A model generated the notes under the pieces. It was given only the letters and a program-made list of their open reading frames with translations, did no database searches and was not told the origin of the DNA. Of a stretch of DNA of 38,762 bases, positions 2,736-33,237 are shown piece after piece. Source of the DNA: Acidobacteriota bacterium (GTDB lineage: Bacteria > Acidobacteriota > Blastocatellia > Pyrinomonadales > Pyrinomonadaceae); contig JANLTD010000877.1 in NCBI GenBank assembly GCA_031362765.1, positions 1 through 38,762 of the forward strand, given 5' to 3'. Each line of letters begins with the position of its first letter. The stretch's first letter is position 1. The translations under genes and the position numbers were made by a program.

Positions 2736-2749
2736 GTTTAAGAAGGAAT

Positions 2750-4853: not shown

Positions 4854-4868
4854 GAACTGCAAAACGAA

Positions 4869-6275: not shown

Positions 6276-6313
6276 CTTCCATCCAAAGATAATTTCAAAC
6301 AAGGGTAATATTT

Positions 6314-9300: not shown

Positions 9301-9343
9301 TGTTATCAATAACTATGAAAAGCTAATACAAATTGTGAAATAA
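6314..9343 (+). CDS. Type III restriction enzyme Res-like subunit (DEAD/DEAH helicase + PD-(D/E)xK nuclease)
   Basis: Walker [21 protein letters not shown]-equivalent [10 protein letters not shown], helicase C motifs [18 protein letters not shown] and QEVGRGMR. C-terminal nuclease motif YNPDWAI...IYFVAETKG. Confidence 0.9.
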
Positions 9344-9406
9344 GAAGTAATATTAAATTTTCCGATTTCATAAAATCGTAGACATTTATTAAACAGGAGA
9401 ATTTGA

Positions 9407-15869: not shown

Positions 15870-16388
15870 ATGAAAAATTTGGATAAGATAATAACGACAA
15901 AATCCAGGGTATTAATACTCGGAACAATGCCGGGAAAAAAGTCTTTGGAATTAGATGAATATTATGCCAATCCCCGCAATCAATTCTGGGGAATAATGGA
16001 TTATCTGGTAGAAGGAATTTCAAACCTTGAGTATAAAAAGAAGATAAGTCTATTAAATGAAAAGGGAATTGCGCTTTGGGACGTTTTGCTCAGTTGCGAG
16101 CGGGAAGGGAGTCTGGATTCAAAAATCAAAAAAGGCACGGAAAAACCCAATGACTTTCAGGAATTTTTCGACCGAAATAAAAATCTTCGCACTGTTATCT
16201 TTAACGGGAAAAGCAAAAGGTCGGCTTACCGGCTGTTCAGGAAAATCGTATTGCCCACGCTTCGGACGGAAACAAAATCGTCTCTAATACTCATACCGCT
16301 TCCTTCAAGTTCTTCGGCGAATACTCATCAAACATTACAGGAAAAGGCAGAGGAGTGGATGAAAATTTCAGATTATTTAACAAAGTGA
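15870..16388 (+). CDS. DNA-deoxyinosine (hypoxanthine-DNA) glycosylase, UDG superfamily
   Basis: N-terminal LILGTMPGKKSLELDEYYANPRNQFWGIM and C-terminal LPSSSSAN match my memory of the UDG family-6 hypoxanthine-DNA glycosylase signature. Confidence 0.7.
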   Translation: MKNLDKIITTKSRVLILGTMPGKKSLELDEYYANPRNQFWGIMDYLVEGISNLEYKKKISLLNEKGIALWDVLLSCEREGSLDSKIKKGTEKPNDFQEFFDRNKNLRTVIFNGKSKRSAYRLFRKIVLPTLRTETKSSLILIPLPSSSSANTHQTLQEKAEEWMKISDYLTK

Positions 16389-16496
16389 AAAGCGGATTAA
16401 TTCCCTCAAAACCGTGGATAATATTATCAGCTAAGTCCAACCGAATTCTCTTGTTACAGAAAAAACAAAAACTCTAAAAATTAAAATTTGAAGAAC

Positions 16497-16532
16497 AGCC
16501 GCAAAGATTTTATAAACTTTTCGGCTTTTTTA
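16497..16532 (+). terminator. Probable intrinsic terminator after the glycosylase gene
   Basis: Stem agccgcaaag / cttttcggct (one internal mismatch) followed by a T6 run (16526-16531). It lies inside the long version of ORF 16488, which argues for the shorter start at 16602. Confidence 0.5.
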
Positions 16533-16601
16533 TTTCCGATTTATATCCGATCAGGTCATTTCTTATTTGTAGAGCGAAAACATTCGATCAGGAGAGAAAA
16601 A

Positions 16602-16886
16602 ATGCCGCAGAACAAATTAACTTTTAACCAGATCTTAGCCGGAGTTGAAAAGGACAATTCCGAACGATTAATGAAAAAAGCCCGCACCGCGAATAGTTTG
16701 GCGAAAAAAACGCGTGGCGCTCAGAGACAGACGGCTTACGCCGTGAAGACCGGGGCGCTCTGTTCACTCGTTAAAAAAATGCCTGCCCGAATCGACGTTC
16801 GCAAAGACATTATTCTGACCGATTTTGTCGTGATCGAACTCAAAAACACAAATGTCGGACTGCATTTTCCGATTATTAACCTTTAA
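16602..16886 (+). CDS. Small hypothetical protein (94 aa)
   Basis: ATG at 16602 preceded by SD ggagag (16591-16596). Basic N-terminal half. No motif recognised. Confidence 0.5.
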   Translation: MPQNKLTFNQILAGVEKDNSERLMKKARTANSLAKKTRGAQRQTAYAVKTGALCSLVKKMPARIDVRKDIILTDFVVIELKNTNVGLHFPIINL

Positions 16887-16924
16887 ACACATTTAGTTAC
16901 CGGGAGCCGAAGGAAAATCACCTT

Positions 16925-17590
16925 ATGCCGAAAAGAATCATCACCATCGATATCGAAACACTGCCGATTAGTGAGCCGTTTGAAAGTAAACTTTTCTGGG
17001 AAACCGAAGAAGAGTATCGCAAATCCGCCTGCGACGCCAATTTAGGCAGAATTCTCTGTATCGGTTATTCCGAGCAGAATGAATTCGGCGCAATTACCAA
17101 ACACGGCTGCTTTGGGTGGCGCGAGGAAACAGAGGATTTTGAATCAAATGAAAGTATAATCCTGGCTGAATTCTGGGATTTCTTACGCGGTTTCAACACT
17201 TCAAGCGACCTGATCATCGGTCACAACATAATGGATTTCGATCTGCCGTTTATCGTTCAGCGGTCGATCATCAATAGTGTTCGTCCGACCATTGATTTTT
17301 ATTTCGGCAAATACCGCATTCAGCCGATCTTCGACACGATGCGCGTCTGGGATTGCTGGAAGTGGGGCGGCTCGACTTCTCTAGCCAAGCTGGCGTATGC
17401 CCTTCATTTAGAAAATCCGAAAGCAGGCGGAATCGACGGCTCAAATCTTTACGAAGCTTTCACAGAAGGACGGTTCGAAGAGATCTACAAATACTGCATG
17501 CGCGACGTGAAGGTGACGCGCAACGCCTGGCGGAAAATGAATTTTACGTATCCATCGGAAAAGCAGAAAGAAATGGCGGTGGCTGTTTGA
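16925..17590 (+). CDS. RNase H-fold 3'-5' exonuclease related to the PolB exonuclease domain
   Basis: ExoI ITIDIETLP, ExoII LIIGHNIMDFDLPFI, ExoIII YKYCMRDV. Confidence 0.7.
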   Translation: MPKRIITIDIETLPISEPFESKLFWETEEEYRKSACDANLGRILCIGYSEQNEFGAITKHGCFGWREETEDFESNESIILAEFWDFLRGFNTSSDLIIGHNIMDFDLPFIVQRSIINSVRPTIDFYFGKYRIQPIFDTMRVWDCWKWGGSTSLAKLAYALHLENPKAGGIDGSNLYEAFTEGRFEEIYKYCMRDVKVTRNAWRKMNFTYPSEKQKEMAVAV

Positions 17591-17761: not shown

Positions 17762-18676
17762 ATGAAAGTACTGAAGAGTTTTATTAACAGCCTGAAGATA
17801 GGCGACCCGCTTGCATTTAACCAACTTACTATTAAACCTATTTTTACCGGGACGGATTTCTCTCTGCCGCTGCTGACGCTTGAAGAGGCATTGGAGCAAA
17901 AGGCGCTGGAAATCACGGAAAAAAGCGAAGGCGGCAGCGTTCCCGAGCTTCTGGTCAAGAACCTGGGAAATATTGATGTGATTGTTCTTGAAGGCGAGGA
18001 ACTTCGCGGGGCAAAGCAGAACCGGATCGTGAACACGACCATCATAATCCCCGCCGGAGGCGAGATCATCCTGCCCGTTTCCTGCGTCGAACAGGGACGC
18101 TGGAGTTATGTCTCAAAGAGTTTTTCGTCGGGCGGAAATGTGCTTTATCCGAGCCTGAGAAAACTCAGCCACGATTCCGTGACAAAAAGCCTGCGCCGGG
18201 ACAGGAGTTATGAATCTGACCAAACAGGCATCTGGTCGGAACTGAAGCTCAAATCGGCGCGCATGTCGGTGAAGAGCGACACGGATGCCATGAGCGACAT
18301 TCTTGCGTGCCGCATTTCGCCCGAAGCAGAAACCGATCTGCTTGAAGAAATTCCGTATCAGGAAAAGCAAATCGGTTTTCTCGCCTTTATTAAAGGCAGA
18401 TTCGCCGGCGGCGATATTTTCGGGTCCGCCGATCTTTGCGAAAAACAAATGAGGAAACTGCTGCGCGGCTATTACCTGGACGCATTGGACAGCGACGTGA
18501 AATTTCCCGCGCTTGACGCGGCAGAAATTCTAAAGCAAATTCCGATCGCTCATCAGGAACAGTTTGCGGCAATCGGCAAAGGAACGGAAATGCGGTTTGA
18601 GGCAGATAAGATTCAGGGCGCCTGGAAAATGGTCGATGAAAACCTTTCGCACCTGACAGTGTTTCCAAAAGGCTAA
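17762..18676 (+). CDS. ARPP-1 / DUF6569-like protein
   Basis: SEGGSVPELLVKNLGNIDVIVLEGEELRGAKQNRIVNTTIIIPAGGEIILPVSCVEQGRWSY matches the conserved core I remember for DUF6569 (ARG- and rhodanese-phosphatase-associated protein 1). Confidence 0.6.
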   Translation: MKVLKSFINSLKIGDPLAFNQLTIKPIFTGTDFSLPLLTLEEALEQKALEITEKSEGGSVPELLVKNLGNIDVIVLEGEELRGAKQNRIVNTTIIIPAGGEIILPVSCVEQGRWSYVSKSFSSGGNVLYPSLRKLSHDSVTKSLRRDRSYESDQTGIWSELKLKSARMSVKSDTDAMSDILACRISPEAETDLLEEIPYQEKQIGFLAFIKGRFAGGDIFGSADLCEKQMRKLLRGYYLDALDSDVKFPALDAAEILKQIPIAHQEQFAAIGKGTEMRFEADKIQGAWKMVDENLSHLTVFPKG

Positions 18677-18867
18677 AAATCTCGACAAATATGAAAGTTG
18701 TGTACGGGCAACGGCTTGAAAACATGACTTGATTAGTGATGTTGGGGGTTCTCAAATCTCTAAATACTTTCCATTTCAATTAAGACGCATTGCCGGAATC
18801 AGTGCTTAAACTCTTTCGATTGAGTTGAATTGCAATCGTTGAAACTCAATCCTGAAAAATTAAAAAT

Positions 18868-20448
18868 ATGAAAAATCTTTTACTTATTGCCTTAATGGCG
18901 ATGACCGCTTTCTTACCCTTTTCCTTAATGCCTGCGCCCGTTGCGGCTCAGGAAATAAAACAGGAAAAACTAACCAACAAGGATCTGGTTGAAATGTCGA
19001 AATCGGGTCTGCCCGAAACGATCATTTTAGCCAAAATTAAATCCTCCGGCGGGAACTTTGATACTTCGCCCGCGGCGCTTCAGGAGCTTAAAAAGGAAGG
19101 CGTCTCCGACACGATAATTATAGCGCTCCTGCAGCCGGATGAACCGAAAAAGGGGCGCATGAGGGACGAATTAACTACCAGCTTTAATCGTTTGAAAACA
19201 AGCGTCGTTACTGTCTGGAGCGAGTTTGGACACGGAACCGGCTTTATCATTGATAAAGATGGATTGATCCTGACCAATCAGCATGTGGTCGGTCCAAGTG
19301 AATATATTGCCGTCCAATTTGACGAGAAAAGAAAAGTGCGGGCAACTCTGCTGGCAGCGAGCGCGGAAAAGGATGTCGCGGTTCTGTGGGCAAATTTAGA
19401 AGGACTGCCCGAGGCAACCGTGGCGGTGATTGCCAAAACCGATGCTGAGGAACCTGCGGTAACTGAAGGCGAGAGGGTTTTCACGATCGGCAGTCCGCTA
19501 AATCAAAAGAAGATCATCACGACCGGCATTGCCAGCAAGATCGAAGAAAAAGCCATAATCTCGGACATCAACATCAATCATGGAAATTCCGGCGGCGCCC
19601 TTTTTAATTCGATCGGCGAGGTCGTCGGCATCACAACCTTCGGGGATCTCTCCATCTCCGGCGGTCCGGGCGTGTCTGGTATTATCCGCATCGAGCAGGC
19701 ATTTCCAATTATTGAGGAAGCTCGAATGAAAATGGCGACCGTCCAGAAACCGCCGGCAAAACTTCTTTTAGTTGATCCGACCGACACCTTTCCGATCGAA
19801 GCCATTAAAGAAATTGCCGCCGCTAAAAAATTCGATACGTCCCGTTATATATTGGGCATCGGGGATTTTACGGTGACCTTCATGACGCCGACTCTCAAAT
19901 ACCGTTTGGAAACCGAAGCCGAACGCGAAGCCGCCAAAACGCGGGGCAAACGCAACAAAAAGGAGGGTGCAGTGCAGGGAACCTTTCGCCCGTTCGAGGA
20001 TATCCGCGGCTGGCGCGAATACGTCGGCGACTATAAACCGATTTTGCTCATCCGGGCGACTCCTCTTCTGGGGGAATCTTTCTGGGGAGCTTTCGGACGC
20101 GGCGTCGCGGCAAACTACGGCATTCGCGTGCCGGCGAAACTGCGCTTTAAAACGGATTTTTATAAAATGCGTTTAATCTGCGGAGAACGAGAAGTTGAAC
20201 CGATCCATCCGGCAAAGATCGCTCATATTTTAAGCGAAAGCAACTATCTGATCTCGGTTAAGGACGCAACTTATGAAGGTTTTTACTCGTATCCTGCTGA
20301 CGCAATAAACGAGCAATGCGGCAAAGTGACGATTGAGCTCTTTTCTGAGAAAAATCCGACGGAAGCTAAAATCAAAGTACTGGATGAGAAAACCGTCACC
20401 AAGATAGCTGGCGATTTTGCTCCTTATCTTGATTCCCGTCCAAAATAA
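18868..20448 (+). CDS. Secreted trypsin-like (S1/HtrA-type) serine protease
   Basis: Signal peptide MKNLLLIALMAMTAFLPFSLMPAPVAAQE. His box GTGFIIDKDGLILTNQHVV, Asp region EKDVAVLW, Ser box INHGNSGGALFN. Confidence 0.8.
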   Translation: MKNLLLIALMAMTAFLPFSLMPAPVAAQEIKQEKLTNKDLVEMSKSGLPETIILAKIKSSGGNFDTSPAALQELKKEGVSDTIIIALLQPDEPKKGRMRDELTTSFNRLKTSVVTVWSEFGHGTGFIIDKDGLILTNQHVVGPSEYIAVQFDEKRKVRATLLAASAEKDVAVLWANLEGLPEATVAVIAKTDAEEPAVTEGERVFTIGSPLNQKKIITTGIASKIEEKAIISDININHGNSGGALFNSIGEVVGITTFGDLSISGGPGVSGIIRIEQAFPIIEEARMKMATVQKPPAKLLLVDPTDTFPIEAIKEIAAAKKFDTSRYILGIGDFTVTFMTPTLKYRLETEAEREAAKTRGKRNKKEGAVQGTFRPFEDIRGWREYVGDYKPILLIRATPLLGESFWGAFGRGVAANYGIRVPAKLRFKTDFYKMRLICGEREVEPIHPAKIAHILSESNYLISVKDATYEGFYSYPADAINEQCGKVTIELFSEKNPTEAKIKVLDEKTVTKIAGDFAPYLDSRPK

Positions 20449-20587: not shown

Positions 20588-21919
20588 ATGAATGACAAAA
20601 AACCGAAAACATTTACGTTTATTAACAATAAACAGTTGGTTCAAATTATCGAAGCTGCGAAAAAACATATTATTTATGCGGCGCCGAGCGTTTCAAAAAC
20701 GGTAGCCGAATCGCTTTGTAAATTTAAGGAGAGCGATCAATCGGTGACGCTGCGCGTTATTGTTGATGCCGATCCGGAGGTTTTTCGTCTCGGGTTTGGT
20801 GAGCAAAGCGGAGTCGAACTTCTTGCAGATAAGGCGGTTGACGTTCGCCGCGCGCCGGGCTTGCGCGTCGCTGTTTTGCTTGTCGATGATAAGGCTTGGG
20901 TTTATTCGCCAACGCCGGAAATCATTCTCGAGCAGCCCGGTGCCGCCATTTCCAACGCCGTACAAGTCAACGTCGAATTTGCAAAACAAATTCTTTTTTC
21001 AATCGCACCGGACTTGAGCATGAGCGCGGATGAAGACGTTTTAGATGAAGCGCTGTTGACAAAAGGCTTTTCGCCGGAAATTGCCGAACCAAATTCAACG
21101 GTTAAAAGCGTTCTGGACGAAAGTTATTTGACTGACGATTTAACGCCCGAAATCGGCACAGAACCCTTAACAGACGAGGATTTAAAAACAATTAAAGTTG
21201 AACTCGAGGAAAGCCCTCCGCAAAAGTTTGACCAGAAACGACGTGTACGGGTCTATCAGGGTTATTTTCAATTCGTTGAGTTGAGTTTTTCGGGTTGCCG
21301 GATGACCAGCAAAACAATTACTTTGCCGAAATATCTGCTGAACGTCGCGGACCCGGAACTTCGGGACCGGGTGAAAACAACCTGCCGCGTTTTGGGCGAG
21401 GAAAGCGGTTTGACGACGCAAATTAAAATGTTTGAGGAAACCGTCAAAGATCTGCGCGCAGATTGCTTAAAACCTCTGGGCGAGCCCTACGGCTCGGTAA
21501 TTCTTCGCAGCCGGCGCGCAGAATTTGATGGAAAGCTGGAAAATATAAAAGCCGAATTGACCGAATTGAGAAAAACGATTAAACAAGATTTGGAAGCGGA
21601 AATCGAAGCGAGCCGAAAAAGCCTGCTTGAGATGCTGCTGCCGGGATTGATGAAAAATCCGCCGCCGCAAATTTCAAGAGCCGGGCGCGAATTGGACGAA
21701 GAATTTCTGAAAAAATATCTCGATTTTGAACTCGGAAAACAAATGCCGCGCCCCGAACAGTTAATCAGCAATATGAATCTCTCATGCGTTTACAAAGACG
21801 TTACTTTTGAGATGCTGAACGGGGACGAGTTTATCAAAGCGATAAAGAAAAACTACGCGGATAAGAATTTCGACAAACTTTTTGCGGAAGAAGTAACCAT
21901 CGGAGAAAGAGAAACGTAG
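20588..21919 (+). CDS. Hypothetical protein: N-terminal PLD-like fold with degenerate HKD motif, C-terminal coiled-coil region
   Basis: The layout ...AKKHIIYAAPSVS...LRVIVDAD...VDVRRAPGLRVAVLLVDDKAWVYSPT parallels PLD/Nuc repeats. The position of HxK is occupied by RVA. Confidence 0.35.
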   Translation: MNDKKPKTFTFINNKQLVQIIEAAKKHIIYAAPSVSKTVAESLCKFKESDQSVTLRVIVDADPEVFRLGFGEQSGVELLADKAVDVRRAPGLRVAVLLVDDKAWVYSPTPEIILEQPGAAISNAVQVNVEFAKQILFSIAPDLSMSADEDVLDEALLTKGFSPEIAEPNSTVKSVLDESYLTDDLTPEIGTEPLTDEDLKTIKVELEESPPQKFDQKRRVRVYQGYFQFVELSFSGCRMTSKTITLPKYLLNVADPELRDRVKTTCRVLGEESGLTTQIKMFEETVKDLRADCLKPLGEPYGSVILRSRRAEFDGKLENIKAELTELRKTIKQDLEAEIEASRKSLLEMLLPGLMKNPPPQISRAGRELDEEFLKKYLDFELGKQMPRPEQLISNMNLSCVYKDVTFEMLNGDEFIKAIKKNYADKNFDKLFAEEVTIGERET

Positions 21920-22038: not shown

Positions 22039-22494
22039 ATGACGAAAAATAAAAACGAAAGGGCGACAATCGAAGACTCGATTGCAATTGCCGCCGAAGC
22101 TCATAAAGGCGTAAAGGACAAAGCCGGCGCCGCGTATATTCTCCATCCCCTCAGAATGATGATGCGCCTTAAAACGGAAGCCGAGATGATCACGGCAATT
22201 CTGCACGACGTGGTCGAAGATACAGGCTGGACAATTGAAAAATTGCGCGCTCAAGGTTTTTCCGAAGAAGTGCTTGAAGCTGTCGACTGCGTAACGAACA
22301 AGGAAGGCGAAAGCTACGAGAAATTTATCGAGCGCGCAGGCAGAAATCCGATTGCCCGCCGCGTGAAAATCGCCGACCTCGAAGATAATATGAACATTCA
22401 GCGAATCGGCGAGTTAAAGCCGAAGGATTTGGAGCGATTGGAGAAATATCATCGCTCGTGGCGCATTCTTACGGCAGATAATTGTGCCGAGTAA
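22039..22494 (+). CDS. HD-domain hydrolase of the RelA/SpoT (small alarmone hydrolase) type
   Basis: AAEAHKGVKDKAGAAYILHPLRMM and AILHDVVEDT are the SpoT-hydrolase HD signatures. Stand-alone at 151 aa. Confidence 0.75.
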   Translation: MTKNKNERATIEDSIAIAAEAHKGVKDKAGAAYILHPLRMMMRLKTEAEMITAILHDVVEDTGWTIEKLRAQGFSEEVLEAVDCVTNKEGESYEKFIERAGRNPIARRVKIADLEDNMNIQRIGELKPKDLERLEKYHRSWRILTADNCAE

Positions 22495-22515
22495 TTTAAG
22501 GAGGTGTAAAACGTT

Positions 22516-23331
22516 ATGGCAATGCCGGGTAATTTGGTATTAGTTCGCCACGGGCATTCGGAAGGCAATCTGGTTTCCGATAAAGCAAAGCAGGGCGACG
22601 ACAGTTTTTACACGCCCGATTTCAGAGAGCGTCCCGGTCATCGTTGGCGATTAACAAACGACGGCACGAAGCAGGCTCGAACAGCCGGAGAATGGATACT
22701 TGAAAATATCCTGCGAAAGTTTGACAGATATTATGTATCGCCGTATGTCCGAACGAGAGAGACGGCAGCGCTGCTTAATTTGCCCGATGCAGAATGGCGC
22801 GTTGACCAGCGGCTCAGAGAGCGCGATTGGGGCGATATCGGTTCAATGCCCAAAAATGAATTTCACACTCATTACCCGCGCAGCGCTTCGATGAAGAAAA
22901 TTGACGCGCTATACTGGCGGCCGCCGGGCGGCGAATCCATCGCCGATGTGCGTTTAAGAGTTCGGAATTTGTTTGATACCCTGCACCGTGAATGTGCCGG
23001 ACAATCCGTTTTGCTTGTCACGCACGGCGAATTTATGTGGGCGGCGCGGGCTGAATTAGAATATATGACCGATGAACAATGGGTTCTTTCAGATAATGAT
23101 CCGGCTCAAAAGATACATAATACGCAAGTTATTCACTACACGCGAAATCACCCGGAAACCGGAGAGACCGGAAAATATATTGCCTGGCAAAAAAGCGTTT
23201 GCCCCTGGAAGGAAAGCATGGAAGCGAAATGGCTGCCGATCGAGCGCAAAAGATTTTCCAACGAAGACTTGCTCGAGCAGGCGAATCAAATAGAACCTAT
23301 TTCTTCATTGCGGAAAATTTTATCCCCATAA
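22516..23331 (+). CDS. Histidine phosphatase (phosphoglycerate-mutase-like) family protein
   Basis: RHG motif LVLVRHGHSEGN, RERDWGD, and second His box LLVTHGEFM. SD aaggagg lies upstream. Confidence 0.8.
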   Translation: MAMPGNLVLVRHGHSEGNLVSDKAKQGDDSFYTPDFRERPGHRWRLTNDGTKQARTAGEWILENILRKFDRYYVSPYVRTRETAALLNLPDAEWRVDQRLRERDWGDIGSMPKNEFHTHYPRSASMKKIDALYWRPPGGESIADVRLRVRNLFDTLHRECAGQSVLLVTHGEFMWAARAELEYMTDEQWVLSDNDPAQKIHNTQVIHYTRNHPETGETGKYIAWQKSVCPWKESMEAKWLPIERKRFSNEDLLEQANQIEPISSLRKILSP

Positions 23332-23332
23332 G

Positions 23333-24577
23333 ATGAACATTAAAACACTGCAATGGAACATCGGCGGCGGACGGGTTTGCAAAGAAGGCGCGGACTATAC
23401 GCTTCCTCCTGCTTACACGGAAAACGGGCTTGATTCAATCATTGAATTTCTTAAACGCGAACAGCCGGACATTTTAACACTTCAGGAGACCCATGAATCA
23501 AAAGGCGGCTGCCAAACACAAATAATTGCCGAAGCACTCAACCTTTCATATTGGACGAATGATTCTTACGATGAATCCTTTATTGAAAAAGGACAGCGAA
23601 TCGGTCAGGCGGTTATTTCAAAATACCCTATCGTAGAGAAACGGTTCGCTTTGTTTACCAATCCCGAATTTAGTTTTATTGATGATGATGGTAATAAAAT
23701 TACCTCAAAGAACGGGGGACTGACCGAATGCGTTATAGAACTGCCTGACAAGAATCTCTTACAGATAGAAACTTTTCATATGATGCCATTTCATTTTTTC
23801 GCGGTTGATTTAGATTCCGAGCAAGCCCTGAAGGTATTAAGAGAAGTTCAAAGTTTAATCGGTAAAGCCCAAATACCTACCATTGTGCAGGCAGATTTTA
23901 ATTTAAATTGTCCCGGCATTCGACAGTTTTTTGCCGAAACATTCGCTGCCGGAATGCGCGAAGTAATTCAGCAAAATCCGACTACTCCGAAAGGAAAAAG
24001 ATTAGATCATATTCTTTACGCCGGAATAAAACATTTAAAAAGCGAAGTGGTCAAAGATGTAAGAACAGATCACTACCCCATAATCTCAATGTTTCAAATT
24101 GAAGACTTTGAGGACAAAGAAACCCAACCGGCCCATTTTATTCGTGCGGAATCGGAATATGACCCAAAGGCAACGATTGGTCAGCCGCCTATCGACGACA
24201 CTGTAATAAGTGCCGAATCTTTGGGCATCGACACGATTAATGAGGATACCTGGAAATTTTTCGACAAAAAGGCATTCGGCGAATCGCCAAATGCGAAGTT
24301 GGTTCTCGTCTCAAAACTAATTCAAGCCAAAGTTCACGCCCCAGACCCAGATGTGCTCAACGGCAATAAACCACATCCCGTGTTTAAAGCGTACTCATAC
24401 TTTTTAATTTTAAGCGGTAGGTACAAAAACCCACTTGTAATGCCCCGTAAACCAATTACCGTGGCAGCCAACCCGGACGGCACATACAACATTGTTGACG
24501 GCTCAGCTACAGTGCAGGCGGCAATATTTGTTGGCTGGAAGTATGTTCCGGTCATTGTGATGGACAAAGTTTTGTGA
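23333..24577 (+). CDS. Endonuclease/exonuclease/phosphatase (EEP) domain fused to a C-terminal ParB/Srx-like domain
   Basis: EEP motifs: TLQWNIGGG, DILTLQE, VQADFN, LDHILYAG, TDHYPI. C-terminal PITVAANPDGTYNIVDGSATVQAAIFVGWKYVPVIVMD resembles the ParB-N/sulfiredoxin core with the DGxHR motif degraded. Starts 1 nt after the upstream stop. Confidence 0.7.
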   Translation: MNIKTLQWNIGGGRVCKEGADYTLPPAYTENGLDSIIEFLKREQPDILTLQETHESKGGCQTQIIAEALNLSYWTNDSYDESFIEKGQRIGQAVISKYPIVEKRFALFTNPEFSFIDDDGNKITSKNGGLTECVIELPDKNLLQIETFHMMPFHFFAVDLDSEQALKVLREVQSLIGKAQIPTIVQADFNLNCPGIRQFFAETFAAGMREVIQQNPTTPKGKRLDHILYAGIKHLKSEVVKDVRTDHYPIISMFQIEDFEDKETQPAHFIRAESEYDPKATIGQPPIDDTVISAESLGIDTINEDTWKFFDKKAFGESPNAKLVLVSKLIQAKVHAPDPDVLNGNKPHPVFKAYSYFLILSGRYKNPLVMPRKPITVAANPDGTYNIVDGSATVQAAIFVGWKYVPVIVMDKVL

Positions 24578-24662: not shown

Positions 24663-25485
24663 ATGGAAAAGTTAATTAAAAATGCTCAGCTTTTCAAACT
24701 TTCGCAATCAGACATTGATGCTGCCGAAAAGGAACGATTGCAATTCATTGAACCCTTTCCAAAAGAAAGCATTAAAATACTTAAAATAGAAGATTACGTT
24801 AAGGTAAAATCGAGGGACACTTTTACCTACTGGCTGGAACACAAACGAATTTTATTCGGTATCGGTGGGGGCAATGCTTCAAAGTTCGGCATTTATATGG
24901 CAAAAGACGGTAATTATTACACCGGATCCGGCACTAAAAAGAAAATTCATCAAGGCGATGAGTTAGAGCGGACATTTTCATCAATAAGAAAAGGAATTGT
25001 CGATACCTTCGATTTAACCGAACAAAACAGAATTTATGAAATAATCGACATTAATATTCCGGTTTGGAATCTGACATCAGGACACTTTCTTGTAATACCT
25101 TGTATTGTTTGAGTTTATTCAACCGACACAATCAATTTCAGCAATTTCTTGGCTTGTTTTAACTGAATAATCGGGTATAAGATTAAAGACGGTAGGTCAA
25201 ACTAACAATTAACTTGTTTTTTGCGCTAATTTGCCAAACCAAATTTCTCCAGTTTTCAATCTTGCTTATTATAAGCCTAATGTGCAGAATACTTTACAAG
25301 AAAGTGTCCTGACTTCAGGGTTTGGAATATGGTTCTGCAAAAGATACTTTCCAACTATTTCCCCCAGAAATTCATAAACATCAAAACGGTTCGATTCAGA
25401 ATTCATCGCCGGGACTTACAACATCACCGAAGCCAATCTCCACAACTGGCTCAAAAAAAACAGGCTCAAGCGAAAAGACTTCTAA
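24663..25485 (+). pseudogene. Small gene of unknown function, interrupted by a MITE (possibly also frameshifted)
   Basis: ORF 24663-25112 terminates inside the MITE. Removing 25071-25328 (MITE plus one TSD copy, 258 nt, in frame) joins ...DINIPVWN to MVLQKILSNYFPQKFINI... A different frame (25378-25485, ...FDSEFIAGTYNITEANLHNWLKKNRLKRKDF*) looks more protein-like near the end. The segment FTYWLEHKRILFGIGGGNASKFGIY loosely recalls N-terminal domains of McrB-like ATPases. Confidence 0.45.
25071..25318. mobile_element. MITE-1: 248-bp non-autonomous element with 25-bp TIRs and a 10-bp target-site duplication
   Basis: TIR-L is ctgacatcaggacactttcttgtaa (25071-25095). TIR-R is ttacaagaaagtgtcctgacttcag (25294-25318); 23/25 positions are complementary. 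Identical ggtttggaat flanks both ends (25061-25070 and 25319-25328). There is no ORF inside. Confidence 0.8.
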
Positions 25486-25509: not shown

Positions 25510-27890
<2,381 letters not shown>

Positions 27891-28064: not shown

Positions 28065-29066
28065 TTATGTTTTCAAAGCGTCCCGGATTGATTTTGAATG
28101 TTTGTCTTTTTTAACCGCGAGTCTTTGGACATAAATTTGCGTCGTTTTAATATTGCTGTGTCCCAAAGCCTCTTGCGTTTCCGCCATTGATTCTGAATAT
28201 TCCGAAACAATTTTTGCAAAAGTGTGCCGTAGCCGGTGAATGTGAAAATGCTTGATGTCGGCTTCGATAGCGTAAGCTTCCATCCGGCGGGCAAATCCGT
28301 GAGACGTCAAGCCTTTCTTTTTAGTTGAGCCGGCTCCCTTATCGTGCCGCAGCCAAAGAGGTTCATCTTCGCCGAACATTTCCGTTCGACCGGTCGCTTC
28401 CAGATATTCAAACAAAGCGTTTTTGGTGGTTTCGTCATCCAGTTCAAAATTGAGGAAAAAACCGCCTTTGACCTTTGCCTTGATAAAAAATCTACCTTCT
28501 TTGATCTCGATACTATTGCCGCGAAGCCCGATGATCTCGGCGCGTCGCCGTCCGGTCGCGACATAAAATTGTAAGATCGCCAAATCGCGCAGATGCACCG
28601 GCTTTTTACCCATCGCATGACACGCAACAATTTCCAACAATTTTCCTAATTCTTCACGCGATAAAGCCTTGACGCTTTCCGATTGAAAGGGTTTCGCGGC
28701 TTTCGGCAGCGAAACTTTCGCCGGATTGATCGGAATAAGGCGCATCATTCCGACTTCATTTCGCAAATATTCAAAAAACTGGGAAAGTGCCGAAATCCGG
28801 TTATAAACGGTGCCATCCGCAAGTCCTTCGGTTTTCAGACTCCAGCGCCATTCTTCAACGTCGCCCGGCAAAACCCGTTCGGCGCTTTTGCCGCAAAAAT
28901 CAAAAAAATCAAAAACGGCTTTACTTTTATCATTGCGAATATCGTTGCTTCGTTTAAGAGATGAATTAACCGTTCGGGTCAACCAACTCTCAACGACCGC
29001 ATTAACATCAAGCGAAACTGTAAAATTTTCAGAGTTTGGAATTTGGAGTTCTTCAGAAGTTTTCAC
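28065..29066 (-). CDS. Tyrosine recombinase / phage-type integrase
   Basis: Catalytic residues lie in ATGRRRAEI, HIHRLRHTFA and LGHSNIKTTQIYV. N-terminal SAM-like core-binding domain. Confidence 0.9.
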   Translation of the reverse strand: MKTSEELQIPNSENFTVSLDVNAVVESWLTRTVNSSLKRSNDIRNDKSKAVFDFFDFCGKSAERVLPGDVEEWRWSLKTEGLADGTVYNRISALSQFFEYLRNEVGMMRLIPINPAKVSLPKAAKPFQSESVKALSREELGKLLEIVACHAMGKKPVHLRDLAILQFYVATGRRRAEIIGLRGNSIEIKEGRFFIKAKVKGGFFLNFELDDETTKNALFEYLEATGRTEMFGEDEPLWLRHDKGAGSTKKKGLTSHGFARRMEAYAIEADIKHFHIHRLRHTFAKIVSEYSESMAETQEALGHSNIKTTQIYVQRLAVKKDKHSKSIRDALKT

Positions 29067-29100
29067 AAAGTGATTTTAGATCAGTTTTACTCAAAAATCA

Positions 29101-29131
29101 AGGTTACACATTTGGCAGAAATGTGTAACCT
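29101..29131 (-). terminator. Perfect 13-bp inverted repeat (possible terminator of the CBASS cassette or an int operator)
   Basis: aggttacacattt-ggcag-aaatgtgtaacct. On the minus strand it is followed by cttgattttt. It lies 35 nt upstream of the integrase start. Confidence 0.4.
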
Positions 29132-29164
29132 TGGCATAAATTGATTGGGTCGTTACAAGTTTTT

Positions 29165-29240
29165 GTCAATTTACCCATTAGCAATCATCGTGGAACCATA
29201 AGCTGTCACTGAATAACCCATAAGTTGTCATTGTGAAAAT
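29165..29240. repeat. IR-L: cluster of three direct ~15-bp motifs (consensus ACCCATAAGCTGTCA) at 21-22-bp spacing
   Basis: Copies at 29173-29187 (acccattagcaatca), 29194-29208 (aaccataagctgtca) and 29216-29230 (acccataagttgtca). The reverse complement aligns with 34506-34610. Confidence 0.7.
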
Positions 29241-29330
29241 TTTCTTAATTTTCAATAATCATTTTACAGGGTTTCACTAAGGTCAGTAGTAATTTCTAAT
29301 AGCTGAAGAATGGCTGCTTGAAGATCTTCC

Positions 29331-30467
29331 TTATTTGTGCTCGATTTCAAATGCTTTTGTAAATCCTCCCGTTTTCCAATTTTGATCGTACAGTACTAAT
29401 GGCAATTGAGACTTCGGATTCCAGACACGACCTAATTCAATGCACGCTGAAACCGGCATAACCGGAAAAATATGAAGTTTGACATCCTCGCCATGAAATA
29501 GTTTTATTTCATCCAAAAGGCTTCGAATAACAGTTCTATATTCGCTTAAATGCTCCCTCTTGCGAATAAAATCATTGTTGGGATTATTGATTGTCAATTC
29601 CCAAATGGAACAGTCGTTGCCCAAAACTTTCTTTATTCTTTCATTGGAGATCGTCGCACTAAGCGAAAACTTGAGAGCAATGGTAGTGGTTTTGTGCTCG
29701 GGTTTATTGATAATGTAATTCACAATTGAAGGATCGTCTTCAAACCAAGCCCATGTTGATTCGGGTTCTTTTTTAATTTGGTAAACATCTGCTGGAAAAA
29801 TGTCTCCAAACAATGTGCCGAGTTTAATAAGCAGCGGTTGGGCAGCAAAACCGAAAATGGAATAGTGTTTAACGGGTCTTTCCGCTCGCATTTGAGTTAT
29901 CTTTCGCTCAAACAGTCTTTCTAAATTTCTAACTTCCGTATTCCAGAATTCTGGAGTATGGTCTTCATCCGCATTATTCTTGAGACTTAATTCTATGCAG
30001 CTTGCCTCAGCCGGGAAGCGAAATGGCACTAATCCTTCGTTAGCGCAATTTAAATTAAGAGGTGTATTATGTTTTCCAATATTCGACCCGTAAAGAACGA
30101 CATTGCTTCTTTTCTCATCTTTGATTTCCGTTAGAAGCCTAATTCTTTCCTCATGCTTGTGCTTCATACCCAGTAATCTCTCTTCTGGATGACCTGCTAT
30201 ATCTACTTTATCAATGAGCCGATGATGAATGTCGCAAAGCAACATTAAATTAGAAATTTCTTTAGCTAATAACGGAGAACGTATTATATCCCCGCGCGGA
30301 CCGCCCGGCTCGTCCGCAACGATATGTGCAACATATGCATAGTTGGATTTAACTTTAGTCAACAGATCTTCATAGAGAATTTCATTGCACCCGTCATACT
30401 CGCAACGCCCAGCAGATTGTGCCCATAAAATGAATAGTTTTCGTGGCGGAATTTTGGTTTTGCTCAT
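29331..30467 (-). CDS. cap5: CBASS effector, Cap5-like: HNH endonuclease fused to SAVED sensor domain
   Basis: N-terminal HNH (GRCEYDGC...YVAHIVADEPGGPRG...NLMLLCDIHHRLID), followed by a ~260-aa SAVED-sized domain ending HIFPVMPVSACIELGRVW. ATG at 30467 is preferred over the track's GTG at 30530. Confidence 0.8.
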   Translation of the reverse strand: MSKTKIPPRKLFILWAQSAGRCEYDGCNEILYEDLLTKVKSNYAYVAHIVADEPGGPRGDIIRSPLLAKEISNLMLLCDIHHRLIDKVDIAGHPEERLLGMKHKHEERIRLLTEIKDEKRSNVVLYGSNIGKHNTPLNLNCANEGLVPFRFPAEASCIELSLKNNADEDHTPEFWNTEVRNLERLFERKITQMRAERPVKHYSIFGFAAQPLLIKLGTLFGDIFPADVYQIKKEPESTWAWFEDDPSIVNYIINKPEHKTTTIALKFSLSATISNERIKKVLGNDCSIWELTINNPNNDFIRKREHLSEYRTVIRSLLDEIKLFHGEDVKLHIFPVMPVSACIELGRVWNPKSQLPLVLYDQNWKTGGFTKAFEIEHK

Positions 30468-30605
30468 AAGTATAAGTGTTTTAGGAATGATTCTAATTAA
30501 TATCCTTGTTTTGATTGTGTTCCATCTCACGCAATTTAGTTACCGAGGAACGCTCTTCGCTTCGCTTTCTTTGTCAATCAATTGATGATGAATAGTGCAA
30601 ATTAG

Positions 30606-30769
30606 CTGATACCAACGGATTTTGTGGTCAAATAAAGCTGTTGTTGAAAACAACAGGGTTAGCTTGACGACAATTTTGTGGTTGTAGCTTTGCACTTTGC
30701 AAAAAAGCTATGGTTTTCAAGGATTTTGTAGTTTGGTAAAAAGCCAACCACAAAATCCGTTGGTATCAG
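30606..30769. mobile_element. MITE-2: 164-bp element with perfect 23-bp TIRs and a 7-bp target-site duplication, inside the CBASS operon
   Basis: TIR ctgataccaacggattttgtggt (30606-30628) is the exact reverse complement of 30747-30769. It is flanked by aaattag at 30599-30605 and 30770-30776. Interior has extra ATTTTGTGGT-like copies and small hairpins. Confidence 0.8.
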
Positions 30770-30920
30770 AAATTAGCATTAGGTTAGTGATACCTGACTT
30801 TAATTTTTCTGAAAGAATTACTTCTTCGGAAGAATCTTAATTTTAGTCTGCTATTATGTAGGCTAAGTAAGACTGCTTAAAATGCGATCCAGTGAGATTG
30901 GCTTCATATAGCTTATAGTA

Positions 30921-31346
30921 CTACGGATGCTCCGCCCGACTACCGCACCATTCTCCAGTAGCTAACCAAATTTCATAATGAAGCAGCCAGAGTGATGTCC
31001 ACGGAATGATTGTGTTTGCTATCAGTTTCGAAGGCACCCATTCACCATACTTTGACCGGTAAAGGCAAAGAACTTTCCCTCCAAACACATGTGGAATCTT
31101 CTCGCCAGGTCGGGTCTTAAGAACTGGATCCAGAACACGGACCTCAGGTCGCTCGCCGAATCGGTATATGATTTGAACCGTATACACGATACTAAGGTGA
31201 GACGGATGAAGTTTCCCAATCCAGATCAACTTGGTGCCCTTGGTTAGGACAATTTTCGATTCTGGGAATTTACTTCTTAGCTCAACACTTTGTACCGCGA
31301 GTGAGAGCGAACGGTCTGAGGTTCGTCTCTGTTGATTAATCGCCAT
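30921..31346 (-). CDS. Stand-alone prokaryotic E2 (ubiquitin-conjugating-like) protein of E2-only CBASS
   Basis: IPHVFGGKVLCLYRSKYGEWVPSKLIANTIIPW parallels the UBC core HPN..G.ICL...W.P with a candidate catalytic Cys. 141 aa. The start overlaps the CD-NTase stop by 11 nt. Confidence 0.65.
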   Translation of the reverse strand: MAINQQRRTSDRSLSLAVQSVELRSKFPESKIVLTKGTKLIWIGKLHPSHLSIVYTVQIIYRFGERPEVRVLDPVLKTRPGEKIPHVFGGKVLCLYRSKYGEWVPSKLIANTIIPWTSLWLLHYEIWLATGEWCGSRAEHP

Positions 31347-32520
31347 ACCAAGTGTTTTTAACGACAGTCGTGCCGACTGTGGAATTGAGTAAGCCCGATT
31401 GTGATTGCATCTTCAATTCACCTTTTATCTGACTTTCGTCAACACCTTGACCATATCGTTCCATGCTTCTGGTAACAACCTCTGATCCGAACGATTCGGA
31501 TAAGTGTTCAGCAATGTTATTCAGTCCCTGTTGCTGCAGGAGCAACTCCATGTCGTATTTGACTACTGACAACCATTCAAAGAAACGCTCGGCTCGCTGA
31601 GGAAATTCGTTCCATTTGTCAGCAAAATTCTCTTTTGGATTGACGGGATTCGGTATCCACCAATCCTCGTCAATTTTGCTGATACTGCCTTCCATTCTGG
31701 AAATTATTCTGGTTAATGCCTGATATAAATCAACTTCATTTTGATAAGCCTGTGCTGCTAGCGTTGTGATTATTACAGAAATAGGTTTGTCATCTGGGTC
31801 TCCTTGATATCTAATGTCACGATGACGTTTTAATATCTGGACGGAGATCCGGAGTGGTGTTTTCACAGTGTCTTCTGCAATCTTTTCAACCTCTACGTTT
31901 CCAGCACGAGCCATCGAAGCTCGTTTTGTTTCAAATGCAACCGATTCTCTCTCTCGGAACCAGTATGCATAAGCTTTAGGGTTGCTGTGCTGCCACGCAC
32001 GAAGTTGTTTATCGGTCAACAAAATACTTGTCTCAATTGAGCGGTTGAACAGATTTCCTTCTTCATCTGGTAAAGCCGGTAGGACATCCATGTGAAAGCG
32101 ACCGTTATAATTCATCGCCCAACATCGGCGGCGCCTTTCCAATTTTGGTATTTCCTTCCCTTCTCGTTTCCGATGTTCGATATATCTTTTCAGTTGTTCA
32201 CCAGCTCGCTCGACCAATTCCTCCTGTGAGATATTCGTTTTTGACAGGTAACGTAGATAAACAAGGTCTACATCGTAACCGCAATCTGAGGAAATCGGCT
32301 GGATGGACGTTCCCAAACGCACCGACCCTTGTGGGTAAATCTCCGAGTTTGTTCGATAGAGATCTTCATTATCTTTTCGAATCCACGCTCCGAGATGGTT
32401 GTATTTCCTAACCATCTCCTCTCTTAAGGCGTTTGGTATGTCCAGGTCGCTTGCAATCAGCGTCAATAAATTACCAAGCTGCTGCTCCCGTGTCATACCG
32501 ATACTTATTCTGTCATCCAT
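31336..32520 (-). CDS. CD-NTase (cGAS/DncV-like, SMODS-type nucleotidyltransferase)
   Basis: Pol-beta NTase signature YPQGSVRLGTS ... YDVDLVY ... FHMDVLPA. SD gggagg lies 8 nt upstream of the ATG. The C-terminus is ...NTWYGD. Confidence 0.8.
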   Translation of the reverse strand: MDDRISIGMTREQQLGNLLTLIASDLDIPNALREEMVRKYNHLGAWIRKDNEDLYRTNSEIYPQGSVRLGTSIQPISSDCGYDVDLVYLRYLSKTNISQEELVERAGEQLKRYIEHRKREGKEIPKLERRRRCWAMNYNGRFHMDVLPALPDEEGNLFNRSIETSILLTDKQLRAWQHSNPKAYAYWFRERESVAFETKRASMARAGNVEVEKIAEDTVKTPLRISVQILKRHRDIRYQGDPDDKPISVIITTLAAQAYQNEVDLYQALTRIISRMEGSISKIDEDWWIPNPVNPKENFADKWNEFPQRAERFFEWLSVVKYDMELLLQQQGLNNIAEHLSESFGSEVVTRSMERYGQGVDESQIKGELKMQSQSGLLNSTVGTTVVKNTWYGD

Positions 32521-32550
32521 AATTTGTTACCTCCCGTTAAACTGTCCTAG

Positions 32551-32596
32551 TTAATTTTCAGAAAGCTCCCATTAAGCTTTCTCCAATCAAAATTAA
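32551..32596. promoter_or_regulatory. 46-bp nested palindrome immediately upstream of the CD-NTase gene
   Basis: ttaatttt-c-agaaagct-cccatta-agctttct-ccaatc-aaaattaa. The outer (8 bp) and inner (8 bp) arms are both perfect complements. It lies 31-76 nt upstream of the cdn ATG. Confidence 0.5.
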
Positions 32597-32652
32597 CCAC
32601 CATTTATCCTAAAGCACATTCAGTGAAGAGACTGAATAACTACTTAAAAAAA

Positions 32653-33234
32653 TTATTCCACCATTGTGTAGATAAATTGATCCCGACCAGCATCCGACCT
32701 GTCTTTCTCACGTTTTACCAACCCCAAGTTAAACAACTTCGTTAATCTTTCGTTAGCTGTCGTATGATTGATGTTTAGCTGATCTTTAATATGATTAGCC
32801 GTTAGAGGCGACCGAGCATTCGCAATCAACTCAAACGTTTCAATATATGTCTTGTGCAATTTGCCGATGATTCTGTATCCATCACCTTTTCTTTCCAGCA
32901 TTGCTAAACCTAAACCCTCGAGAGCACTGATTAAATTTTCTCGTGTGTAATCGGTCAGATGTTCGACGGCTAAAAACTTATCAGTGAATTCCCCATTACG
33001 CGATAAGACTCCTTTTCCAAACAACTCATTAGCAAATGAAAAATCGAAAACCTCAATGTCTTGAACGTCGATGATCACTAATTCGAAAGATCCCGCCTTC
33101 TCAAAAAGCTCTCTCAGCTCCTTTCTAAAGAGCTTAGCTTTCTCACGCGTCCAAAGTTGCGAATCGCCGTTTCTATATAAAATAAGTCTTTCAGCCATCC
33201 TGTTCAGTGTAAGTACTGAATGAGCTTTTGTCAA
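32653..33234 (-). CDS. STAS-like (DUF4325-type) domain fused to a C-terminal winged-helix DNA-binding domain
   Basis: REKAKLFRKELRELFEKAGSFELVIIDVQDIEVFDFSFANELFGKGV fits the DUF4325/STAS-like pattern. The C-terminus LTANHIKDQLNINHTTANERLTKLFNLGLVKRE is a wHTH. Start is TTG at 33234 (3 nt after the upstream stop) or ATG at 33198. Confidence 0.6.
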   Translation of the reverse strand: MTKAHSVLTLNRMAERLILYRNGDSQLWTREKAKLFRKELRELFEKAGSFELVIIDVQDIEVFDFSFANELFGKGVLSRNGEFTDKFLAVEHLTDYTRENLISALEGLGLAMLERKGDGYRIIGKLHKTYIETFELIANARSPLTANHIKDQLNINHTTANERLTKLFNLGLVKREKDRSDAGRDQFIYTMVE

Positions 33235-33237
33235 GAA

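Follow-up and report, generated by a model that had tools for sequence, protein, structure and literature searches.

The window analysed here, a 38,762-nt stretch of the forward strand of an Acidobacteriota contig (JANLTD010000877.1), carries at positions 22039–24577 an operon of three hydrolase genes. They encode a SpoT-type HD protein, a phosphoglycerate mutase (PGAM)-type histidine phosphatase, and an endonuclease/exonuclease/phosphatase (EEP) domain fused to a domain of the ParB/sulfiredoxin (ParB/Srx) fold. The genes co-occur in about 20 metagenomic loci with unrelated flanks, where they form a cassette of variable composition. We tentatively propose, as a reading that is quite possible though short of probable, that the trio represents one version of a mobile enzymatic antidote ("eraser") cassette, encoded by the cell or the island, which would remove phosphates and pyrophosphates installed on ribose by toxins of the RelA/SpoT homologue (RSH) or Zeta type. 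The cassette matches no named system. Judged by sequence, it would be a new form of enzymatic immunity based on an alarmone hydrolase, accompanied by an undescribed clade of the ParB/Srx fold and by a partner protein, here called U443.

The three genes lie on the plus strand and are tightly packed. The HD gene (22039–22494, 151 aa) is separated by 21 nt from the phosphatase gene (22516–23331, 271 aa), and the latter by 1 nt from the EEP::ParB gene (23333–24577, 414 aa). A strong ribosome-binding site, AAGGAGG, precedes the phosphatase gene at 22498–22504. At the second junction, TAAgATG, one base lies between the phosphatase stop and the EEP start, hence the EEP::ParB gene is likely to be translationally coupled to the phosphatase gene. 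The packing and the three folds had been described earlier from the letters alone, without database searches (the sequence-only reading), and the coordinates and the Pfam, PDB and AlphaFold2 results agree with that description. It had also noted the absence of an adjacent synthetase or cyclase. Indeed, the Pfam scan of the window open reading frames (ORFs) finds neither in or adjoining the operon, and among the window ORFs covered by that scan, most of those with at least 120 aa, none has a RelA_SpoT domain. The closest cyclase, a SMODS protein of a CBASS-like set, is 7 kb away on the opposite strand, past a group II intron and an integrase. Upstream, 119 nt before the HD gene, is the gene of U443 (20588–21919, plus strand), a 443-aa protein of no recognised fold, which is a frequent but optional partner of the trio. 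The promoter and terminator scan, which bears on the co-transcription of U443, gave no more than shuffled sequence does.

The HD protein was initially read as a (p)ppGpp-hydrolase-type domain. As a fold this stands; as a specificity it does not, since the protein is predicted to be an Aph1-type (p)ppApp hydrolase. The best PDB match by far is 7smg_A, "(p)ppApp hydrolase", with E=6e-38 and 47% identity in a 139-residue alignment with zero gaps, and the RelA/SpoT hydrolase domains and MESH1 rank behind it at 1e-10 to 1e-4. The 7smg structure is that of Aph1 of Bacteroides caccae, a monofunctional (p)ppApp hydrolase of 149 aa (Ahmad et al. 2023, PMC10083569). The match to TIGR00691 (spoT_relA) is 3e-14, that to phrog_990 is 2.8e-49, and Pfam HD_4 is just below the threshold (26.6 vs 27.2 bits). 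The HD catalytic motifs (AHKG...HP...LHDVVED...DLEDN) are kept and align with 7smg without gaps. Six residues, D24, R96, D116, R119, K133 and Y134, mark the Aph1 family and were experimentally shown to set the (p)ppApp specificity (PMC10083569). Five of them are kept here: D24, R96, R119, K133 and Y134 correspond to D27, R99, R122, K136 and Y137 of the window protein. Further, the C-terminal region, whose 53 residues define the family in Aph1, aligns at high confidence. All twelve Aph1 homologues tested, taken from diverse contexts, hydrolysed ppApp; Aph1 itself confers immunity to a (p)ppApp-synthetase toxin associated with MuF, and most of its homologues sit in diverse contexts away from any toxin (PMC10083569). 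The sequence-only reading had suggested degradation of a nucleotide-derived toxin product such as (p)ppApp, and the probable membership of the HD protein in a (p)ppApp-specific family strengthens this suggestion.

The phosphatase is, by its motifs and profile matches, an intact PGAM-type enzyme of branch 1 of the histidine phosphatase superfamily, as had been suggested, and belongs to no characterised subfamily. The Pfam His_Phos_1 match is strong (9e-30, 104 bits vs the 21.7-bit cut-off), and both the RHG motif (VRHGHSEGN) and the second catalytic histidine (VTHGEF) are present. The protein ends in a family-specific conserved extension (residues about 190–265) with many invariant positions. 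Every NCBIfam equivalog cut-off is missed; the nearest model is the alpha-ribazole phosphatase of the cobalamin pathway, at 8e-18, far under its cut-off. Orthologs with 60–86% identity adjoin an Aph1-type HD gene in at least 13 loci, and remoter homologs (41–48% identity) stand alone in housekeeping contexts, next to the genes of DHFR, MurB and similar proteins. Searched by tblastn against the INPHARED phages and PLSDB plasmids, the phosphatase yields merely two weak jumbo-phage matches. Neither its subfamily nor the EEP family was found in alignment-based scans of 2.9 million IMG/VR contigs.

The 414-aa protein consists of the EEP catalytic domain (residues 1–258, positions 23333–24106; supported by Pfam, AlphaFold2 and Foldseek), a disordered linker (residues 259–291, positions 24107–24205; the predicted local distance difference test score, pLDDT, is below 50 at residues 261–300) and the ParB/Srx-fold domain (residues about 292–414, positions 24206–24577). 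The EEP part matches Pfam Exo_endo_phos at residues 6–247 (1e-13, 51.8 bits vs the 24.5-bit cut-off), and its catalytic positions N9, E52, D188, N190, D225, D246 and H247 are conserved or invariant among 29 homologs. The pLDDT of its AlphaFold2 model exceeds 90, and all Foldseek matches of the model are EEP enzymes, starting with uncharacterised bacterial ones and followed by TDP2, neutral sphingomyelinase, AP endonucleases (APE1), nocturnin and ANGEL2; the L1 endonuclease is also among them. The best PDB match of the family profile is nocturnin (8e-5). Thus the domain is, as far as the sequence and the model tell, an intact enzyme of the EEP superfamily and of no characterised subfamily. Neither the sequence-profile nor the structure search separates a nuclease from a phosphatase.

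The EEP family is small. It comprises 61 homologs, only four of which have the C-terminal extension, and the linker is poorly conserved among these four fusion proteins. In 23 further genome loci, mostly from Patescibacteria and one from a Woesearchaeota archaeon, the EEP gene is alone, with no conserved neighbour. The Patescibacteria proteins (Saccharimonadia, Paceibacterota and others, within L005–L028) are 32–47% identical to the window protein. Conserved partners of their genes were sought in the neighbourhoods and none was found. In an acidobacterial locus from the same scan, L004, a gene resembling those of protein tyrosine phosphatases (PTP-like) lies downstream of the EEP gene. The tblastn search with the EEP::ParB protein gave no match in the INPHARED phages and PLSDB plasmids. 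The other suggestion of the sequence-only reading, an EEP nuclease effector gated by nucleotide turnover, gains little support here, as the close EEP homologs in Patescibacteria are solitary and have no regulator.

The C-terminal domain was described earlier as a ParB-N/Srx-like domain with a degraded DGxHR motif. The fold is confirmed by modelling and profile searches. AlphaFold2, run on the C-terminal 123 residues with an alignment of 26 sequences, gives a pLDDT of 93.6 and a predicted template modelling (TM) score of 0.86, and the top Foldseek matches in PDB and BFVD are all ParB, Noc, KorB, SbnI, sulfiredoxin or SerK; the top 50 are ParB/Srx proteins, with E-values of 1e-4 to 1e-2 and query-normalised TM-scores of 0.4–0.55. 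The domain profile matches the sequences of Noc (4e-5) and SbnI (4e-4). In single-protein searches the ParB matches are merely marginal, and Pfam ParB_N is weak (16.2 bits vs the 26.3-bit cut-off), matching 10 of the 26 family members; ddrB-ParB (PF18763) matches none of the 26 at an E-value of 1 or better.

The word "degraded", on the other hand, does not hold. The profile search, made with seven close homologs against 1.84 billion representative proteins, yields a family of 127 representative clusters, which we call DGNAT after its motif, DG[N/S/Y]AT (DGSAT in the window protein). The motif aligns opposite GERR of Noc, and both triphosphate-binding arginines are missing; a phosphate-binding motif of the GxxR type (GERRxR, FGGCHR or DGHHR) is not seen in the domain. 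Since D, G, A and T of the motif, an upstream R-x-P, a W and a P are invariant or shared by 90% or more of the 26 aligned members, DG-x-A-T is a conserved variant rather than a product of decay. The DGNAT family is an undescribed, non-canonical clade of the ParB/Srx fold, which lacks the nucleotide motif of the CTPase, Srx and SerK members and, by its profile, is distinct from ddrB-ParB.

Many DGNAT members sit inside proteins of 1,000–6,800 residues, and Phage_Mu_F, ART-PolyVal or InPase domains are present in those of them that allowed a scan. In seven IMG/VR loci (L070–L076) the domain is part of giant viral ORFs, whose length ranges from above 2,000 to above 4,000 aa and most of which run off the 12-kb loci. 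These ORFs also contain SNF2 and a ddrB-ParB domain, the latter being separate from DGNAT within one ORF in L070 and L074. In L074 a Zeta_toxin kinase domain lies about 170 residues upstream of the DGNAT domain. Iyer et al. (2017, PMC5512222) described such giant ORFs in phages and conjugative elements as "polyvalent proteins", for which a cargo of early counter-defence enzymes is predicted. The tblastn search with a MuF-linked DGNAT domain gave no match in the INPHARED phages and PLSDB plasmids.

The arrangement of the cassette was compared in related genome and metagenome loci (L001 and so on), most of which are short contigs from metagenomes, with Acidobacteria-like soil bacteria as the probable source. 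The numbers of complete cassettes are therefore minimum values, and the loci are imperfectly independent in phylogenetic terms. Annotation of the metagenome loci relied on the profiles built here and on selected Pfam scans, the unannotated ones being partly scanned. A metagenome scan with the phosphatase subfamily added 31 loci, whose arrangements were established by local jackhmmer. The full HD–phosphatase–EEP order is seen, between unrelated flanks, in the window, in L001, where U443–HD–phosphatase–EEP::ParB are arranged as in the window, and in L003, an acidobacterial metagenome-assembled genome, where HD_4 is followed by a phosphatase::ParB fusion and a free-standing EEP. Adjacent HD and phosphatase genes occur in at least 13 loci, among them L045, L046, L051, L054 and L058.

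Other loci have HD_4, a free-standing ParB-like gene and EEP (L030–L034); NT5C followed by HD–ParB–phosphatase (L035); ParB–phosphatase–EEP (L036, L037); phosphatase–EEP (L048, L053); HD–phosphatase::ParB (L049); and a triple fusion NT5C::ParB::HD followed by the phosphatase (L047). Hence the DGNAT domain has four placements, namely, free-standing (L030–L037), fused to EEP (the window), to the phosphatase (L003, L049) and to NT5C–HD (L047). In L043/L044, L045 and L047, the place of EEP after the phosphatase is taken by a 440-aa ATE_C-like protein (L043 6355–7677, L045 3074–4393, L047 7798–9120). Its C-terminus resembles arginyltransferases, with a FemAB-type GCN5-related N-acetyltransferase (GNAT) fold (Pfam ATE_C, 2e-14; PDB 7wfx, 3e-7), and its N-terminus of about 340 residues has no assigned fold. 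The optional members include further nucleotide phosphatases, NT5C and PTP-like, and in L032–L034 a gene with a YAcAr/SLOG-family domain. In L030/L031 a Zeta_toxin gene lies directly 3' of EEP.

Thus the cassette is a mix-and-match unit drawing on a pool of Aph1-type or other SpoT-type HD proteins, the PGAM-type phosphatase, DGNAT ParB, EEP or the ATE_C-like protein, NT5C, PTP-like proteins and U443. Because the gene order permutes and the fusions vary, these arrangements argue for functional coupling of the genes beyond inherited synteny alone. The trio, presented earlier as a unit, therefore does recur elsewhere, but not as a fixed set: it is one configuration of a shuffling cassette, and its partner U443 had been left out. 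The flanks include YjiT/YjiV with a giant PTP–tetratricopeptide repeat protein; DndB with a block of AAA_5 and SAM-synthetase genes; Hsp70 with a kinase–AAA protein; MobL, DUF488 and Endonuclease_NS; an SF1 helicase; and RhuM. Ordinary nucleotide-salvage operons, a setting that would have spoken against a conflict role, were not what the relatives showed; the loci are variable islands or mobile elements instead. In L002, L036 and L051 the cassette decays to pseudogenes.

No RSH synthetase, cyclase or known defence model is linked to the cassette in the annotated related loci. Scanned with PADLOC, NCBIfam and PHROG, the trio and the genes around it yield no named system, in agreement with the sequence-only reading, and the gene combination was not found in the searched literature. 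In PADLOC-DB v2 the phosphatase, EEP::ParB, U443 and the ATE_C-like protein have no match, and the HD protein has a marginal match to CARF (0.0024). In three acidobacterial-type loci the genes HD_4, ParB and EEP are preceded by a block (L003 1312–5543, L030 161–4388, L032 1723–6061) consisting of an AAA_5 ATPase (about 467 aa), a small protein, a protein of about 449 aa and a SAM-synthetase-like protein, with no PADLOC match. In L032–L034 this block is carried by an integrative element, which also encodes an integrase and a D5_N primase.

U443 has 45 homologs and no match in Pfam, PADLOC, NCBIfam or PHROG, nor any in PDB, which was searched both with the single sequence and with a 26-sequence profile. 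Its gene adjoins that of an Aph1-type HD in L001, L046, L077 and L078/L079, overlaps an upstream NT5C gene in L066/L067, and occurs without HD or NT5C in L068 and L069, alone or in restriction-modification (R-M) contexts. Hence U443 is a frequent but separable partner of the cassette, possibly a defence-island gene in its own right or else the partner that the cassette is missing. By eye, its N-terminus is a candidate phospholipase D (PLD)-like region with H and K replaced. Homology to the 449-aa protein of the L003/L030/L032 block was considered and rejected, as three jackhmmer iterations gave no match. The order trypsin–U443–HD, seen in the window, is also found in L078/L079, where a VWA protein is present instead of the ARPP-1 protein of the window.

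Under the proposed antidote function, the HD enzyme would catalyse 3'-pyrophosphohydrolysis of (p)ppApp, releasing ATP, ADP or AMP and pyrophosphate, as expected from the close homology to the characterised enzyme. The phosphatase and EEP, judged by their families and nearest characterised relatives, would strip further phosphate or phosphodiester groups from the ribose 2' or 3' position of the same or related adenosine substrates, the candidates being pAp-type products, 3'-NADP and pyrophosphorylated tRNA-A76. Among the EEP enzymes, nocturnin removes a 2'-phosphate and ANGEL2 is a 2',3'-cyclic phosphatase. MESH1, a SpoT-type HD enzyme related to the small alarmone hydrolases (SAH), is reported to be an NADPH phosphatase (PMC9765508), acting on the 2'-phosphate of NADPH. 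On the side of the toxins, RSH enzymes make (p)ppApp or pyrophosphorylate tRNA-CCA, and a stand-alone SAH removes the tRNA-CCA pyrophosphate installed by toxSAS FaRel2 (PMC11559606); AvrRxo1, a Zeta-family toxin, makes 3'-NADP (PMC5087710, PMC5491322). The Zeta, ART and MuF domains beside DGNAT in the viral proteins, the Zeta_toxin gene after EEP and the further nucleotide phosphatases among the optional members lend support to the ribose-phosphate theme. Since the DGNAT domain is fused to each enzyme in turn, it could serve, with its CTP-binding arginines lost, as an adaptor common to the enzymes, which it would tether or bring to their target by oligomerising or by binding a ligand or nucleic acid. 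The cassette would make no signal of its own; it would be an antidote to RSH-type (p)ppApp synthetases, tRNA pyrophosphokinases and Zeta-type kinases that are delivered or triggered when the cell is in conflict with phages, with other mobile elements or with bacterial competitors. An antidote is preferred to a toxic effector, given that members of every one of the enzyme families are also found singly in settings that look harmless. The absence of the phosphatase and EEP families from IMG/VR and INPHARED favours a cell- or island-encoded role over phage counter-defence.

Several points weigh against this proposal. The sixth Aph1 specificity residue differs, D116 being N119 in the HD protein; this change recurs in most HDs linked to the cassette, and the HD genes adjoining the phosphatase elsewhere show the same pattern. 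The HD_4 genes of L003, L030 and L032 are not Aph1-type, so that (p)ppApp is perhaps not what the loci have in common. For full reversal of (p)ppApp Aph1 suffices, which leaves the need for two more enzymes unexplained, and the substrates of the phosphatase and EEP are candidates. The EEP fold fits a nuclease equally well, with TDP2, APE1 and the L1 endonuclease among the Foldseek matches, and the replacement of EEP by the ATE_C-like protein resembles the effector exchange of defence systems more than another eraser. The missing producer or toxin may be U443, in which case the cassette would be a toxin–antidote or abortive-infection system. Finally, most related loci come from one broad soil-metagenome group, probably Acidobacteria, and a part of the synteny may reflect common descent.

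A rival explanation is a stand-alone anti-phage system of the abortive-infection type, in which a toxic EEP nuclease, the ATE_C-like protein or U443 is held in check or reset by HD and the phosphatase, and the ParB-like domain senses phage DNA or a nucleotide. The location in defence islands, the nucleases among the structural neighbours of EEP and a constant HD–phosphatase part whose third gene is exchanged, as is characteristic of effector swapping, speak for this explanation, and U443 pairs tightly with NT5C or HD, as toxSAS toxins do with SAH antitoxins. However, the solitary EEP homologs in the small genomes of Patescibacteria argue against intrinsic toxicity, no PADLOC model was matched and no gene producing a signal was found, L003, L035–L037, L043–L045 and L047 lack U443, and the ParB motif is devoid of the NTP-binding arginines; we consider this explanation unlikely. 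The cassette might instead be counter-defence cargo of an integrative mobile element, its hydrolases destroying immune nucleotides of the host or undoing modifications made in abortive infection, such as toxSAS products, and thereby allowing the element, or a helper of it, to become established. Integrase, primase or relaxase genes are indeed found near the cassette in the window, L029, L032–L034 and L046, the DGNAT domain is otherwise typical of phage polyvalent proteins (PMC5512222), and a phage SAH is reported to neutralise a toxSAS (PMC11559606). Yet defence islands are often integrase-linked themselves, so the proximity of mobile elements does not discriminate, several loci are on long chromosomal contigs (150 kb to 2.8 Mb), and the phage databases named above lack the phosphatase subfamily and the EEP family; this explanation is rather improbable.

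Healing of RNA or tRNA 3' ends overlaps with the antidote proposal, the substrate being RNA ends rather than free nucleotides: HD would remove the 3'-pyrophosphate of tRNA-CCA, the phosphatase and EEP a 3'-phosphate or 2',3'-cyclic phosphate, with RNA binding left to the ParB-like domain. The activity of ANGEL2, the aminoacyl-tRNA-binding GNAT fold of arginyltransferase in the alternative third gene, and the ability of SAHs to de-pyrophosphorylate tRNA (PMC11559606) are consistent with such a role. However, Aph1 enzymes were characterised on free (p)ppApp only (PMC10083569), a ligase, a CCA-adding enzyme or an RtcB/Pnkp-type partner is seen in no locus examined, and there are zero tRNA genes in the window; the probability of this role is low. 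Even lower, to the point of being very improbable, is that of an accidental cluster of ordinary enzymes of nucleotide or cofactor salvage. It would accommodate the housekeeping neighbours of the remote phosphatase homologs, the wide distribution of the EEP family in the salvage-dependent Patescibacteria and the alpha-ribazole phosphatase as the closest, if distant, NCBIfam model. It fits neither the patchy distribution and the flanks, always variable and of defence or mobile-element type, nor the decay to pseudogenes and the domain shared with phage polyvalent proteins, and no salvage, kinase or transporter genes are linked to the cassette loci.

Returning to the antidote cassette, the DGNAT domain might have a more specific part in it, as a homotypic recruitment module common to the attacker (phage polyvalent proteins, which have it beside their toxin domains: Zeta kinase, ART and MuF-linked effectors) and the defender (eraser phosphatases). 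By ParB-style pairing of N-domains or through a shared ligand or DNA, it would draw the hydrolases to an injected toxin or to its site of action, resulting in a broad-spectrum antidote complex against (p)ppApp, 3'-NADP and pyrophosphorylated tRNA-CCA. This is a speculative and rather unlikely extension.

Among the known proteins closest to the cassette is Aph1, with the same fold and HD catalytic motif, a similar size (149 vs 151 aa) and no synthetase domain attached. Unlike Aph1, the HD protein of the window has Asn at D116, no adjacent toxin or second immunity gene, and operonic partners, namely, a PGAM-type phosphatase, EEP and a ParB-like domain, a combination that is not in the main text of PMC10083569. 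Reversal of a toxin product (ppApp or tRNA-CCA pyrophosphate) by a small SpoT-type HD enzyme is shared with the toxSAS–SAH pairs (FaRel–ATfaRel) and with phage SAHs (PaSpo of phage SSU5). In contrast to these, no RSH synthetase is seen in the window or the annotated related loci, there are extra phosphatases, and the cassette was not found on phage genomes. Nocturnin, ANGEL2 and MESH1 represent the same two folds, EEP and HD, acting on adenosine ribose phosphate, but they are distant (13–18% identity, E about 1e-4) eukaryotic housekeeping enzymes with no known operonic coupling.

As regards the DGNAT domain, its closest structural and profile matches are of the ParB-CTPase fold (ParB, Noc, KorB), and it fits the diversification by domain fusion linked to mobile elements that was described for this fold (Kaljevic et al. 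2025, PMC12704722). It differs in that the GERR arginines are replaced by A and T and the DGNAT protein has no helix-turn-helix or other DNA-binding domain; moreover, fusions to EEP, histidine phosphatase or HD are not in the main text of that survey. With the ParB domains of polyvalent proteins (DdrB-like; PMC5512222) it shares the ParB/Srx fold without ParA or parS, as well as the occurrence in giant viral ORFs with ddrB-ParB, SNF2, Zeta_toxin, ART-PolyVal, InPase and MuF. However, it does not match Pfam ddrB-ParB, and here it is attached or adjacent to small hydrolases in cellular islands rather than being part of a multi-kilodalton injected protein.

By their annotated content, the 38-kb surroundings are a defence island, with Type III R-M, an M78–UvrD–PDDEXK protein, a PD-T4-1 fragment and CBASS. 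The Type III R-M block (44–14306, plus strand) comprises a helicase-C fragment, DUF4391, the Type III methylase, Fic and the Type III Res subunit with RE_endonuc, followed by two ORFs of no assigned function and by a 1168-aa fusion of M78 peptidase, UvrD and PD-(D/E)XK. Then, at 15870–17590 on the same strand, a DNA-deoxyinosine (hypoxanthine) glycosylase-type uracil-DNA glycosylase (TIGR04274, 6e-43) and a PolB-exonuclease-like 221-aa protein run upstream of ARPP-1. At 17762–20448 (plus strand) there is the ARPP-1 domain protein and, after it, a trypsin-like peptidase of 526 aa whose N-terminus resembles a signal sequence. This pair may be a separate conflict module. It was considered for membership in the cassette and rejected, as it is kept in near-identical relatives only and VWA replaces ARPP-1 in L078.

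Directly downstream of the trio, an ORF at 24663–25112 (plus strand) matches just the N-terminal third of PD-T4-1 (PADLOC, 3e-14, profile positions 22–138 of 383), so that this defence gene looks truncated or disrupted. After it there is a complete group II intron (25510–27835, minus strand) with an ORF of reverse transcriptase/maturase/HNH type at 25584–27272. The integrase (28065–29066, minus strand) stands beside the CBASS-like set within 28065–34092 on the same strand: a SAVED effector (29331–30530), a 141-aa ORF and the SMODS cyclase (31336–32520), which are followed at 32653–34092 by a DUF4325/STAS-HTH protein and a HATPase_c_2 protein. The CBASS genes were rejected as a part of the system of the trio, being on the other strand, behind the intron and integrase, and kept in no related locus. 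A second group II intron-like RNA of about 760 nt (36561–37319, minus strand) has no reverse transcriptase ORF; Rfam places D1–D4 at 37170–37319 and domain V/VI at 36561–36637, and it is either an ORF-less or a degenerate copy.

Thousands of Aph1-type hydrolases lack a known physiological role, being far from any (p)ppApp synthetase (PMC10083569). The cassette puts one subgroup of them into a defined, conserved partnership and thus suggests concrete candidate substrates and partners. The DGNAT clade, common to cellular islands and giant phage polyvalent proteins, widens the repertoire of the ParB fold. Homotypic recruitment, if true, would be a new immunity logic, in which the weapon is neutralised instead of the cell being killed or the DNA cut. 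If the antidote reading is true, the cassette would have a defence-island function that acts by reversing the chemistry of a toxin instead of by abortive infection, and its enzymes would be tools to remove (p)ppApp, 3'-NADP or tRNA pyrophosphate.

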